A stretch of 13,371 bases of DNA. Origin: Candidatus Woesearchaeota archaeon. Lineage in GTDB: Archaea > Nanobdellota > Nanobdellia > SCGC-AAA011-G17 > JACPIM01. Numbering within the stretch: position 1 is the first letter of the stretch; each line of letters opens with the position of its first letter. Of the stretch, positions 904 through 12,604 are shown piece after piece. Location: the NCBI GenBank assembly GCA_964584825.1, contig CAZPBI010000003.1:1-13371 (forward strand). The letters run 5' to 3'. A program made the position numbers and the translations under genes. The notes under the pieces are model-generated. The model made no database searches. It had not been told where the DNA came from and saw nothing but the letters and a program-made list of their open reading frames with translations.

Positions 904-1140
904 TTTCTCATCTCCTATTTACATCCTCTATAACGAGGCGCACCACTTATATATAAACCTTTTGTTGGCTTTTCCTCCTATATAATATAAACCCAAACTC
1001 CACAGGTTATATATAAAGGTTTTGTTTGGATTTAATTTTACATTATTTTATATTCTCCTCCTAATTTTGTGTATATAGAGTAGCGAGCGCTATTTATAAA
1101 CCTTTTTGTTGCCGAAACATTTATAAACACCATTCTACAC
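904..1140 (-). promoter_or_regulatory. only sizeable non-coding gap: three tandem promoter/leader-like units
   Basis: Read on the minus strand there are three units: CCAACAAAAGGTTTATATATAA (968-947), CCAAACAAAACCTTTATATATAA (1029-1007) and GGCAACAAAAAGGTTTATAAATA (1113-1091). Each is followed 35-39 nt downstream by an SD-like TAGGAG(G/A) (about 911-918, 974-981, 1055-1064). A weaker fourth TTTATAAA lies at 1120-1127. Confidence 0.6.
947..965 (-). promoter_or_regulatory. archaeal-type promoter (BRE + TATA box) for the operon starting at 903
   Basis: Minus-strand AAAAGG-TTTATATA matches the methanogen box-A consensus AAANNTTTATATA (TATA = + strand 950-957). The expected TSS, 22-27 nt downstream, falls near 925. 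That leaves a leader of about 20 nt containing the GGAGAT SD before ATG 903. Confidence 0.45.
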
Positions 1141-6662: not shown

Positions 6663-7016
6663 TTAATTCCTTATTGGAATATTTGTCTTTCCAACACTTA
6701 TTGAAACACATCCAGAATTATTTCTAATTCTTGGTTTTGGTTTTTCAAGTTCCTTCTTAACTTCCAACAATTCACTTACAGGCAAATCCATTAGTGCCTG
6801 TTTGATTATTTCTTTTATGTTTGTCTTTTTTGATATTTTTTCTGCTGCCTGTTCAACAAGTTTTTTATAATTCCCAATATCAAATTCTCTGAATGTTATA
6901 ATTTTATCTGTTTCTTTATTGCCATCTGCAAGAAAAGTTTTGCCATCAACTTCTATATATTTTAGATTTTTATGTATGTTGCCCTTAATGAAAACTTTAT
7001 TTATTTTCTTTTCCAT
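6663..7016 (-). CDS. hypothetical protein
   Basis: 117 aa track ORF. AAAGGAGAAAAAAATT precedes ATG 7016. It overlaps the upstream gene by 20 nt. Confidence 0.8.
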   Translation of the reverse strand: MEKKINKVFIKGNIHKNLKYIEVDGKTFLADGNKETDKIITFREFDIGNYKKLVEQAAEKISKKTNIKEIIKQALMDLPVSELLEVKKELEKPKPRIRNNSGCVSISVGKTNIPIRN

Positions 7017-7194
7017 AATTTTTTTCTCCTTTTACAATCTCCCTTTCTTTTTGGTGATAACCTAATAAAAATGCTCCTAAAATTCCAAGAATTATTATGA
7101 AAAGCAAACTTTCAGGAGCAAATACATTTCCTCTAATAACATTTGCAATTCCTGCAAGAATAGAAGCTGATACAAAAACCAATTCCAAAATCAT
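6997..7194 (-). CDS. small membrane protein (2 TM segments)
   Basis: 65 aa track ORF with hydrophobic segments LVFVSASILAGIANVI and LLFIIILGILGAFLLGY, then a charged tail. Confidence 0.75.
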   Translation of the reverse strand: MILELVFVSASILAGIANVIRGNVFAPESLLFIIILGILGAFLLGYHQKEREIVKGEKNYGKENK

Positions 7195-9218: not shown

Positions 9219-9482
9219 TCATGCTTTCACCTTTCTTAATCGTTCTTTTAGTTTGTTTATTGTATTAAATAACCTGAAATTTGCCTTGATAAAATGAAAA
9301 GACATTGAATCCAAAGCCACAATCTCCTCAATCATTGCCTTTTGCTCCAATGGCATCATGCTTGCGCCCTGCTCACACCTGTGCAGATATATCGGGCGCA
9401 TCCTGCCATTGAATTTCTTGTATTTCTGCTTCTCTATTGCTCCGCAGAATTTGCAGAAATTGGATTTAGGTCTGTCGGCCAT
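9219..9482 (-). CDS. zinc-finger small protein
   Basis: The track ORF 9219-9512 starts at a TTG. ATG 9482 (MADRPKSNFCKFCGAIEKQ...) follows AAGGAGAAGAAA. CxxC...HxC pattern. GC-richer patch. 87 aa. Confidence 0.75.
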   Translation of the reverse strand: MADRPKSNFCKFCGAIEKQKYKKFNGRMRPIYLHRCEQGASMMPLEQKAMIEEIVALDSMSFHFIKANFRLFNTINKLKERLRKVKA

Positions 9483-9661
9483 TTTCTTCTCCTTGTGTGT
9501 TTGCACCAACAATTTTTGCTACAAAAATGGAAAATTTCTTCATCACAAAACATTATTTGCATTTCTTCAATTGCTTTACTACATTCATCACAACAATATA
9601 CTTTATTATTACACTCTGGGCAAATTTTGCTTTTCAAATAATTTCTTCCACCCATTTTCAT
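9434..9661 (-). CDS. TRASH/FCS-like zinc-finger protein
   Basis: The track ORF is 9434-9685. I prefer ATG 9661 (MKMGGRNYLKSK...), which forms an ATGA overlap with family member B. CPEC...CCDECSKAIEEMQIMFCDEEIFHFCSKNCW resembles the C-x2-C...FCS-x2-C layout of TRASH/MYM-FCS domains. Its 3' end overlaps the next gene by 49 nt and ends in TAG. Confidence 0.7.
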   Translation of the reverse strand: MKMGGRNYLKSKICPECNNKVYCCDECSKAIEEMQIMFCDEEIFHFCSKNCWCKHTRRRKWPTDLNPISANSAEQ

Positions 9662-9957
9662 TCTCTCCGCCTCTCTTTTTTCCATCTTTTCATAAATCCT
9701 TCTACAAATTTATCTGATTCTTCAAAAGAAATTCTTTTTTCTCCAAACCTATAAACATTCACAAAACAATGCAGAAGACTACAAAATTCATCTGCCATTT
9801 CCCTGTCGGAGAGGACATTGAAGCCTGCACTTTCAAAATTTTCTTTAACTAATCTATAACTGAATAAATCATGTGGCGGTTGTGGAGCATTGTTCTTTTT
9901 TGCCCATTCTTTTTCTGCTTTTCCCCGCCATTTCTCAAAATCTGATTTTTGGTTCAT
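9658..9957 (-). CDS. hypothetical protein, member B of the three-copy family
   Basis: 99 aa track ORF with the pattern MNQKSDFEK...AGFNVLSDRE...KRWKKERRRE. ATGA overlaps at both ends. It is the most divergent of the three copies. Confidence 0.85.
   Translation of the reverse strand: MNQKSDFEKWRGKAEKEWAKKNNAPQPPHDLFSYRLVKENFESAGFNVLSDREMADEFCSLLHCFVNVYRFGEKRISFEESDKFVEGFMKRWKKERRRE
9803..9825 (-). repeat. conserved GC-rich block inside family member B
   Basis: The + strand reads ctgtcggagaggacattgaagcc, matching 21/23 to 331-353 and 11834-11856. Confidence 0.9.
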
Positions 9958-11286: not shown

Positions 11287-11325
11287 TCTTTCATCTCCTT
11301 ATTTTCTTTTTTCTTTTGTAGCATA

Positions 11326-11523
11326 TTAACTCCTCAGAATAAGTATAAGGAAACCAACAATTACCATAACAAAGCCAGAAGCAATTTGTATTGGATTAAA
11401 ATATATAATTGAGTAGAAGAGCAATCCACTTCCAATCACAAAGAGAAGTGCGCCAAAAATACTAATGCTTGTTAGTATTCTCTGAACATCCAGCAATTTC
11501 TGCTTGTCAAGTTTGTCGGTCAT
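11326..11523 (-). CDS. small membrane protein (2 TM segments)
   Basis: 65 aa track ORF with hydrophobic segments ISIFGALLFVIGSGLLFYSII and IASGFVMVIVGFLILIL. Its start lies inside the last 17 nt of the upstream gene. Confidence 0.75.
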   Translation of the reverse strand: MTDKLDKQKLLDVQRILTSISIFGALLFVIGSGLLFYSIIYFNPIQIASGFVMVIVGFLILILRS

Positions 11524-11710
11524 TTTTCAGCCTTTTGTTTTCAATTTTAATTGCAGTAATTTTACCAACTCCAAGAAGAATACAAATATTGTCATAAGAA
11601 TACCCCATTTCTCTTAATTCCTTAATGGCTTGCGGCTTTAATTTATCAATTTCTCTTTGTATCTTTGTTTTTTCTTTCTTTAATAATATAATTTTACCAA
11701 ATGCAGTCAT
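11507..11710 (-). CDS. small helix-turn-helix protein
   Basis: 67 aa track ORF. ATG 11710 overlaps the TGA of family member C (ATGA). GYSYDNICILLGVGKITAIKIENK looks like a classical HTH. Confidence 0.8.
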   Translation of the reverse strand: MTAFGKIILLKKEKTKIQREIDKLKPQAIKELREMGYSYDNICILLGVGKITAIKIENKRLKNDRQT

Positions 11711-11970
11711 TCTCTCCGCCTCTCCTTCCAGTCTTTCAGGAATTGCTTAACATCATCCAAATTAATTTCACCTACCCACTTTTTACTTAAAATAAATTTC
11801 ATAAGCAAGTCAATGTCACGATTTTCAAGTTCACTGTCGGAGAGGATGTTGAAGCCTTTTAAATCATCTATTTTAATTAATTCTGATTCATTACCCTCTA
11901 ATGTATAATCTACAAGAAATAGCCTTTTTTCTTCGCAGAGTTTCTCAAAATCTGTTTTTTGCTTATTCAT
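11707..11970 (-). CDS. hypothetical protein, member C of the three-copy family
   Basis: 87 aa track ORF with the pattern MNKQKTDFEKLCEE...SELIKIDDLKGFNILSDSELE...VKQFLKDWKERRRE. ATGA overlaps at both ends. Confidence 0.85.
   Translation of the reverse strand: MNKQKTDFEKLCEEKRLFLVDYTLEGNESELIKIDDLKGFNILSDSELENRDIDLLMKFILSKKWVGEINLDDVKQFLKDWKERRRE
11834..11856 (-). repeat. conserved GC-rich block inside family member C
   Basis: Identical 23-mer to 331-353. It is followed directly by a 32-nt perfect match (11857-11888 = 360-391). Confidence 0.9.
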
Positions 11971-12128
11971 GTTTTCAATCCTTTTCCGATTTGTCTTGCA
12001 GATGCCCTTTTTTTCAAATCTTCAATTGTTCCACTTTCCATTTTCCCACTTTTAAATTCTTTGTATGCTTTCCAAAAATCAACACCATAAGCATCACAAA
12101 GTATTTCCCTTATTGATTTTTGCTTCAT
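11967..12128 (-). CDS. hypothetical mini-protein (53 aa)
   Basis: Hand translation: MKQKSIREILCDAYGVDFWKAYKEFKSGKMESGTIEDLKKRASARQIGKGLKT. ATGA overlaps at both ends. Confidence 0.6.
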   Translation of the reverse strand: MKQKSIREILCDAYGVDFWKAYKEFKSGKMESGTIEDLKKRASARQIGKGLKT

Positions 12129-12217
12129 TCCGCACACCCGCACCCTTCAATTATTTTCTCCTTCCGCTTCTTCCGCAATGGCTTTGCTGTTTCTCCTGAA
12201 ATGGTTTTCTGGTTCAT
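12125..12217 (-). CDS. possible basic 30-aa peptide
   Basis: Hand translation: MNQKTISGETAKPLRKKRKEKIIEGCGCAE. AGGAAGGCATAGAAA precedes ATG 12217, and the TGA overlaps the next ATG. It sits in a GC-richer patch. It is very short, so the call is tentative. Confidence 0.4.
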   Translation of the reverse strand: MNQKTISGETAKPLRKKRKEKIIEGCGCAE

Positions 12218-12220
12218 TTT

Positions 12221-12604
12221 CTATGCCTTCCTCACAAGCACTTCCTCAACGCAGTTTTTCTGGACTTTTTCGTAAGACCAAATTTTACAATAATTCAAAC
12301 TATCACAAATTCCTTTAACATAATGTTCTTTACACCAATAATCATATTCAGAATCAGGAGCATCAACTTTTCCTTCTTTTTCACACTGCACATTCTCAAT
12401 ATTCTTTCCTGTCGGCTCTGTTTCACTATATAATTTTTCCCTGCTGACTTCCTGCCATTCATTGCATTTCCATTCTGAACCAATAATTCCATAACCAAAC
12501 GAAACCACAATCAATGTAAGAATTATAGCAATACACACAGATGTAAAAATACCTCTTAAAAAATAAAACACATCTGCATTATCAGCATACTCTTTTGAAA
12601 CCAT
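12221..12604 (-). CDS. membrane-anchored Cys-rich protein
   Basis: The track ORF is 12221-12631. ATG 12604 (MVSKEYADN...) is better placed after the GGAGAGG SD. It has one TM segment (IFTSVCIAIILTLIVVSFGYGII) and then 6 Cys in the C-terminal domain. Ends in TAG. Confidence 0.8.
   Translation of the reverse strand: MVSKEYADNADVFYFLRGIFTSVCIAIILTLIVVSFGYGIIGSEWKCNEWQEVSREKLYSETEPTGKNIENVQCEKEGKVDAPDSEYDYWCKEHYVKGICDSLNYCKIWSYEKVQKNCVEEVLVRKA

Follow-up and report, generated by a model that had tools for sequence, protein, structure and literature searches.

Invariant codon islands and their complementarity at the junctions between a paralogous gene family and differing downstream genes

Family copies and the genes behind them

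The window, which is the whole stretch of DNA analysed here (13,371 nucleotides, 13.4 kb), has a GC content of about 30% and a strongly purine-rich coding strand. It corresponds to the first 13.4 kb of a 39-kb contig at NCBI (CAZHDJ010000001.1, assembly GCA_964531575.1). It carries about 50 small genes on the minus strand, nearly all of which are ORFans. Taken together with the contig up to 23 kb (L149), there are more than 70 consecutive co-directional small ORFs of 30-210 aa with almost no Pfam hits. Many of them code for CxxC mini-proteins and several unrelated genes share M-(N/K)-Q-K-(S/T) starts. The only sizeable non-coding gap of the window lies at 904-1140, especially 947-1046 (plus strand), and contains a tandem 40-nt repeat, TTATATATAAA..TATATAAT, which on the coding strand is TATA-box-like or -10-like and by its sequence is likely the promoter region for the downstream gene block.

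Three paralogs of one gene family are found on the minus strand, as are all features below unless stated otherwise: copy A (204-539, 111 aa, MNQKSDFEK...KEKRRRE), copy B (9658-9957, 99 aa) and copy C (11707-11970, 87 aa). The patches conserved at the nucleotide level among these three copies are the start, a block in the middle of the gene and the last 17 nt, the tail. The tail GAGGCGGAGAGAATGA is present at 204-219, 9658-9673 and 11707-11722 with 0 mismatches, where shuffled sequences lead us to expect 0.15 matches. The identical last 16 nt described in an earlier note on this DNA are therefore confirmed in all three copies, and the identity runs on to 17 nt (AGAGG...). The tail combines the codons for RRRE, SD-like purines and an ATGA stop/start overlap. 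In tail A (204-219) the family stop TGA is at 204-206, the ATG of the following gene at 205-207 and CGGAGAG, the 3' strand of the helix discussed below, at 209-215; GAGG at -12..-9 is the best-placed SD. Tail B (9658-9673) has CGGAGAG at 9663-9669 and the ATG at 9659-9661. Tail C (11707-11725) has a duplicated purine motif, GGAGAGGCGGAGAGAATGA, with the ATG at 11708-11710 and, at 11719-11725, a GGAGAGG that is the predicted pairing partner in this copy. Just upstream of the tail, at 225-246 in copy A and 11725-11746 in copy C, there is also a 22-nt stretch, GCAATTCCTGAAAGAATGGAAG on the mRNA, which is 86-91% complementary to 7145-7166 within the gene at 6997-7194; by a rough estimate this is near chance for an AT-rich 13 kb.

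The block is a nucleotide-invariant island of 27 nt, GGCTTCAACATCCTCTCCGACAGGGAA at 327-353 in copy A, and lies at 9799-9825 in copy B (GGCTTCAATGTCCTCTCCGACAGGGAA) and at 11830-11856 in copy C. The pattern common to the three copies is GGCTTCA-NNN-TCCTCTCCGACAG. Within it, GGCTTCAACATCCTCTCCGACAG is found at 331-353 and 11834-11856 without mismatch and at 9803-9825 with two mismatches (CA to TG), where shuffles expect 0; the coordinates and sequences previously given for the block are correct. CUCUCCG, the 5' strand of the helix, is read from the complement of 335-341 in copy A, 9807-9813 in copy B and 11838-11844 in copy C (register 1); for register 2, copy C has CCUCUCC, read from the complement of 11839-11845. 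CTCTCC occurs three times on the mRNA strand of the window, each time within the block.

The genes directly behind the three copies, here called cargo genes, differ from each other. X_A (1-207) has at least 69 aa, starts with an ATGA overlap and runs off the contig end, X_B (9434-9661) codes for a Cys-rich, zinc-finger-like protein of 75 aa and X_C (11507-11710) for a weakly HTH-like protein of 67 aa. The ATGs at 207, 9661 and 11710 are true ORF starts, and an independent gene caller agrees on 9661 and 11710. Counting the two relatives from outside the window, the five cargo genes behind the tail are mutually unrelated, one being a DNA methyltransferase. All three window junctions and both outside relatives have the ATGA stop/start overlap; across the window it is found at 21 of 51 junctions (41%). 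Gene starts in the window are typically preceded by GGTGA, GGAG or GAGG with the 3' end at a modal -9..-6. The GAGG of the tail at -12..-9 (3' end of the 6-mer at -8) fits this modal range while lying inside the upstream ORF; GGAGAG at -7..-2 is merely 3 nt from the AUG, closer than the usual SD spacing. The tail can thus be read as RRRE codons, stop and AUG, as had been claimed; as an SD, the GGAGAG named there is less well placed than GAGG, which occupies the typical position.

Only two family members were found outside the window, P0004, which comprises three identical ENA contigs, and the gene of L147. The latter represents the second relative, L147/L148, whose gene is also carried by the gapped scaffold L150. 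All five members are oriented alike. The related contigs originate from ENA and JGI metagenomes. No further homologs were detected by a profile search of 5.8 billion proteins, by exhaustive HMMER against 1.84 billion representative proteins or by protein-pattern scans of viral, metagenome and genome contigs. Exact DNA-pattern scans with the block, the tail and a neighbouring island returned, beyond the known members, chance matches in unrelated, mostly GC-rich sequence. Searches of Pfam-A and PHROGs with the family protein gave only sub-threshold hits (best PHROG E=0.005, Pfam E=0.024), below the curated cut-offs. The whole window had 0 matches to Rfam 15 at the gathering threshold and no megablast match to known phages, and the AlphaFold2 model of the family protein (pLDDT 51) was uninformative. 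The lineage is almost absent from public databases and therefore cannot yet be studied by comparative methods.

Nucleotide-level constraint and other invariant islands

Codons ending in C make up 6.8% of the codons in the window. The block contains seven of them in a row, GGC TTC AAC ATC CTC TCC GAC, each the rarest synonym for its amino acid, and the joint probability of these choices given the amino acids is 2.6e-10. CUC and UCC each account for 2.5% of their synonymous sets and the Arg codon CGG of the tail for 1.9%. At shared residues, codon identity is 75/78 in the block and 36/36 in the tail versus 108/162 elsewhere. Block and tail are almost invariant in the five members, and the proteins of the outside relatives are 40-50% identical to copy A. 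The P0004 block has a single change, which is nonsynonymous (AAC to AGC), and its tail differs in one base. The invariant block spans 27 nt, and 41 nt are 95% identical to L147. Outside any helix, the invariant synonymous sites number at least five (GGC, UUC, AUC, GAC, AGG). The proteins of copy A and L147 align throughout, so that the block lies in the middle of the gene between homologous, diverged flanks. Because the flanks are homologous but saturated, this invariance is attributed to purifying selection on the nucleotides and not to recent exchange. The suggestion that constraint acts on the nucleotides beyond the LSD amino-acid motif is strongly borne out by the rarest codons and the codon identities.

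Besides the block and the tail, there are other short islands of this kind. What the window has in common with L001 and L147 is limited to islands of 20-68 nt (87-100% identity) at gene starts and ends, and the sequence between the islands is unalignable. One example is the next junction island, ATGACCGACAAACTTGACAAGCAGAAAT, found at 11496-11523 of the window, at 1297-1328 of L001 and at 3367-3398 of L147 and 100% identical in these two other viruses. It encodes the first 9-12 residues, MTDKLDKQK(LLD), of a membrane, a Cys-rich and a helical protein that are otherwise unrelated, which suggests a common N-terminal leader, or start module, in front of swapped gene bodies. The start-region complementarity of this island is weak (-6.8 kcal/mol at 11523) and it has no complementary partner; no such partner was found for the other nucleotide-identical islands in these genomes either. 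A 20-nt island, CAAAAGAAAAAAGAAAATAA, is 100% identical at 11299-11318 of the window, 3521-3540 of L147 and 1510-1529 of L001. It codes for a C-terminus (..KEKRK*) in L147 and is intergenic, past the stop codon, in the window; it is thus the nucleotides, not a protein, that are constrained. An unannotated ORF of 30 codons, MNQKTISGETAKPLRKKRKEKIIEGCGCAE, read from the aligned DNA at about 12124-12216 of the window and about 405-498 of L001, has 87% identity in 68 nt. Its end forms an ATGA overlap with the following gene, which is the family member in L001 and an unrelated 53-aa gene before copy C in the window. A tRNA or att-like origin of the islands was rejected since there are no tRNA genes in the window. 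The invariance of islands in this lineage thus has a general cause for which no helix is needed, and the inference from conservation to pairing is weakened by this. Even if the helix is incidental, nucleotide identity persists in these 20-40-nt islands, and the genes in between are exchanged or diverge to saturation.

The hexamer CCGACA, which is part of each block, is found on the mRNA strand only, with six occurrences versus 0.43 expected (14-fold over-represented), at 332-337, 9473-9478, 9804-9809, 11514-11519, 11835-11840 and 12410-12415. By inspection of the reading frames, five of the six are in the codon phase xCC GAC A. Besides its place in each block, the hexamer recurs where the gene next after each cargo gene begins (MADRP..., MTDKL...), and these occurrences form direct repeats that bracket the C-terminal half of the family gene plus the cargo. 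It is absent from contig positions 13.4-23 kb.

Complementarity and predicted folding

On the mRNA, CAUCCUCUCCG of the block and CGGAGAGAAUG of the tail can pair at 10 of 11 positions, with a Watson-Crick core of 7 bp (CUCUCCG/CGGAGAG), a C.A mismatch and 3 bp onto the AUG. CGGAGAG occupies -8..-2 relative to the downstream start, in agreement with the pairing over the start region described earlier. As had also been pointed out, a C-G and an A-U pair are changed to U-G and G-U in copy B; these wobbles are thin evidence because they fall in the 3-bp AUG extension, which is weakly predicted (pair probabilities of 0.1-0.39, at most 0.39, and absent in copy B). When both islands were shuffled, complementarity of this extent had a chance probability of about 0.01, and when the purine tail alone was shuffled of 0.07; copies A, B and C count here as one evolutionary event and not as three. 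The complementarity is therefore moderately beyond chance. Among 50 gene starts, each compared with its upstream 300 nt, the three junctions form the strongest start-region duplexes (-15.0, -15.0 and -14.6 kcal/mol), with a small margin to the next-best gene start (-14.3 kcal/mol). Two registers are available to the block, at -8..-2 (plus weakly the AUG) or at -15..-9, at a block-tail distance of about 120-140 nt. There is no member that lacks both: homologs without complementarity, named in the earlier note as what would speak against pairing, did not turn up, and each of the five members keeps at least one register.

With ViennaRNA, both the MFE and the centroid structure of copies A and B contain the 7-bp helix (pair probabilities 0.81-0.999). 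In copy C the block pairs instead with the GGAGAGG 7 nt upstream (p 0.87), and in P0004 with GAGAGG plus UG (p about 0.9). For both, the predicted register lies 7 nt further upstream and joins CCUCUC(C) to (G)GAGAGG at -15..-9. In L147 the block goes into a local hairpin; the probability of the long-range helix is 0.005 there, and an open start region is predicted. Pairing of the start region with upstream-ORF sequence is thus predicted in four of the five members, in two registers, and not in L147. The fold proposed beforehand is therefore found as such in copies A and B, shifted in copy C and P0004 and replaced in L147 by the kind of stronger local structure that had been listed as speaking against it. 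RNAalifold, applied to the five family members, yields a single consensus structure, which is the proposed helix; in this fold the helix contributes about -9 kcal/mol, with a covariation term of -0.12 kcal/mol.

In the five-sequence alignment of the helix, 98% of the cells are paired, with two wobble changes, one broken core pair and no double-sided change. The suggested search for covariation between block and tail, made with the five members that are the only ones in the databases searched, found no pair changed on both sides, and one mismatch, in P0004, is uncompensated. There, CGG to CUG breaks one G-C pair of register 1, and the block carries no compensating change. The same G-to-U change creates an A-U pair that lengthens register 2, and the predicted masking stays at 5.9 kcal/mol. 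The flanks of the block, GGCUUCA and ACAGGGAA, have no conserved partner by folding, RNAalifold or inspection, and an extended helix that includes them was rejected for this reason.

In gene-length constructs, opening -15..+4 is predicted to cost 8.2 kcal/mol for copy A, 5.0 for copy B, 7.0 for copy C, 5.9 for P0004 and 0.6 for L147. In a uniform 300-nt context, the three window junctions have opening costs of 7.1, 6.2 and 5.0 kcal/mol and rank 5th, 10th and 15th of 50. By these predictions, start-site masking at the three junctions is not exceptional among the 50 genes. Whole genes fold no more stably than shuffled sequence (z -0.2 to +1.1).

Candidate explanations and known systems

As the best single mechanism we tentatively put forward, at a confidence somewhat short of probable, a clamp on the start site that would suppress independent initiation at the ATGA junction. 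The family gene of an uncultivated, AT-rich, virus-like element would lie directly upstream of differing cargo, its stop overlapping the cargo start (ATGA), and its R-R-R-E codons would double as the purine-rich start region of the cargo, with GAGG at -12..-9 followed by GGAGAG. Within the same translated ORF, CCUCUCCG, the only C-rich stretch of a purine-rich mRNA, would clamp this purine tract in either register. On untranslated mRNA the helix would make it less favourable for 30S subunits to bind independently at the cargo start, at a predicted opening cost of 5-8 kcal/mol, and either register would obstruct 30S binding whichever motif is the SD. Ribosomes on the family gene would melt the helix, and most cargo synthesis would be due to ribosomes that re-initiate after termination at the overlapping UGA. 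Alternatively, 30S subunits may load while a ribosome sits on the block. The formation of the helix in vivo and a lowered independent initiation are what we infer from the folding predictions, and the clamp would then be the presumed reason for the conservation of the block, explaining at best 7-10 of its 27 invariant nucleotides. The strict dependence of downstream translation that had been proposed finds partial support in the in-silico helix; strictness itself is unneeded to explain coupling because 21 of the 51 window junctions are ATGA overlaps.

A reading that we regard as rather unlikely, and the strongest competitor of the clamp, is that the complementarity is incidental. Tail and block would then be two of the short invariant islands that are found genome-wide and frame swappable, unrelated cargo in a mosaic virus lineage. 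The tail would be invariant since it accommodates four codes at once (RRRE codons, SD, ATG of the cargo and TGA of the family gene), and it would possibly be a homology arm for cassette exchange, the coupling being termination-reinitiation at the -4 overlap. The pattern seen in L001 and L147, where nothing but islands at gene starts and ends is shared, fits this well, as do the five unrelated cargo genes with a DNA methyltransferase among them, the identical 9-12 start codons on three unrelated proteins, the 20-nt island that is coding in one genome and intergenic in the other, the weak start-region complementarity of other islands, the frequency of ATGA junctions and a block-tail match with P of merely 0.01-0.07. 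The block itself is less easily accommodated. It lies mid-gene with both protein flanks homologous but diverged and therefore does not mark the boundary of a cassette, and 27 identical nt in saturated flanks are beyond what short-tract recombination can account for. Moreover, no reason is given why the block should be both the only C-rich run of the strand and an exact match to the tail, and the promoter-like or stem-loop element of T4 shuffling cassettes is absent.

It is also conceivable, but in our view unlikely, that the 27-nt block acts in cis in some other capacity, its pairing with the tail being a by-product. It could be an RNA or DNA binding site for a viral or host protein, or its C-ending codons could be selected for decoding at GFNILSD, the most conserved motif of the family protein. 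An invariance that spans the whole of GGCUUCA...UCCUCUCCGACAG.GAA, beyond the 7-10 paired bases, would be explained by this, as would the run of seven rarest synonyms and the over-represented CCGACA, which keeps its codon phase in five of six cases and recurs two genes downstream. A candidate binder or known motif was, however, not found in Rfam, Pfam or PHROGs. A promoter or terminator in the block was rejected, as no sigma-70-like site or terminator-like hairpin was found at block or tail and the promoter-like counts equal the shuffle expectation. General selection for codon accuracy is unlikely since common T-ending codons (GAT, TTT) are used for other invariant residues of this protein, in its N-terminal motif. 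The usual readers of C-ending codons are cognate G34 tRNAs, and slow decoding is not expected, which speaks against the decoding variant.

The idea that the family gene is a portable 'expression adaptor' goes further and we consider it improbable. The invariant SD plus ATGA junction would accept new cargo by recombination at islands, and the pyrimidine clamp would silence the cargo unless the adaptor is translated. If true, the three copies and those of other viruses would be one plug-in device for five unrelated cargos, and gene shuffling and translational gating would be linked in one element.

Least credible by far is a DNA or opposite-strand signal, either an antisense ORF from CGGAGAGGATG, which is present on the plus strand in copies A and C and starts a 40-aa ORF in copy A (343-465), or inverted repeats of an invertible or mobile segment of 120-140 bp, which block and tail resemble by construction: the antisense ORF was rejected as it is not conserved, the ATG being lost in copy B (GGACATTG) and the ORF in copy C having, by inspection, only about 20 codons, and the invertible segment was rejected because its arms of 7-11 nt are far shorter than known invertase sites and all five members have one orientation, while no called gene in the window is reported to have a recombinase domain.

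If the clamp on the start site is real, the locus would be a clear example from nature of a distant codon block, selected at synonymous sites, that gates any gene behind a conserved ATGA junction. It would be a useful, compact coupling device and would explain frozen synonymous sites in fast-evolving viral ORFans.

Several known systems can be compared with this locus. In phages, modules are shuffled by short boundary sequences such as the PeSL cassettes of T4-type phages and the boundary sequences of lambdoid phages, and the polymorphic internal proteins of T4 carry a conserved N-terminal capsid-targeting leader. Here, too, near-identical junction islands flank non-homologous cargo and unrelated proteins share an N-terminal leader. 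A short conserved sequence beside non-homologous cargo, as in a boundary element, is found for the tail and for the island at the start after the cargo, and not for the mid-gene block. The islands also differ from the phage boundaries in having no promoter or stem-loop and in being partly coding.

Translational coupling by RNA unfolding includes the long-distance pairing between coat and replicase in phage MS2, the 'Min Jou' interaction. The masking of the start of a coupled gene by sequence of the upstream ORF is an established class, with genes VII/IX of phage f1 (-4 overlap), MS2 coat-lysis and E. coli rpmI-rplT as examples of coupling by RNA unfolding (PMC12548453). If the clamp is real, it is plausible that the present locus joins this class of structure-silenced coupled genes. 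In these examples, and by prediction also here, a sequence within the translated upstream ORF pairs with the downstream start region and ribosomes on the upstream ORF would open the pairing. As in rpmI-rplT, the upstream strand is about 120 nt away, so that a ribosome there would not cover the downstream start. The present helix differs in being purely predicted, with 7 bp (plus 3 weak pairs), two registers and no covariation, and the gene pair also has the -4 overlap, which by itself supports re-initiation.

In ATGA gene pairs of E. coli, predicted structures have been proposed as a barrier against de novo initiation (Huber et al. 2019, PMC6728339). These pairs share with the present junctions the ATGA overlap, an SD within the C-terminal codons of the upstream gene and an RNA structure proposed to suppress independent initiation. 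The E. coli structures are local to the start region, whereas the partner here is a distant, invariant codon block, and this block is common to paralogs with unrelated genes behind them. If the clamp is real, its notable feature would be that the same combination of clamp and junction serves unrelated cargo genes.
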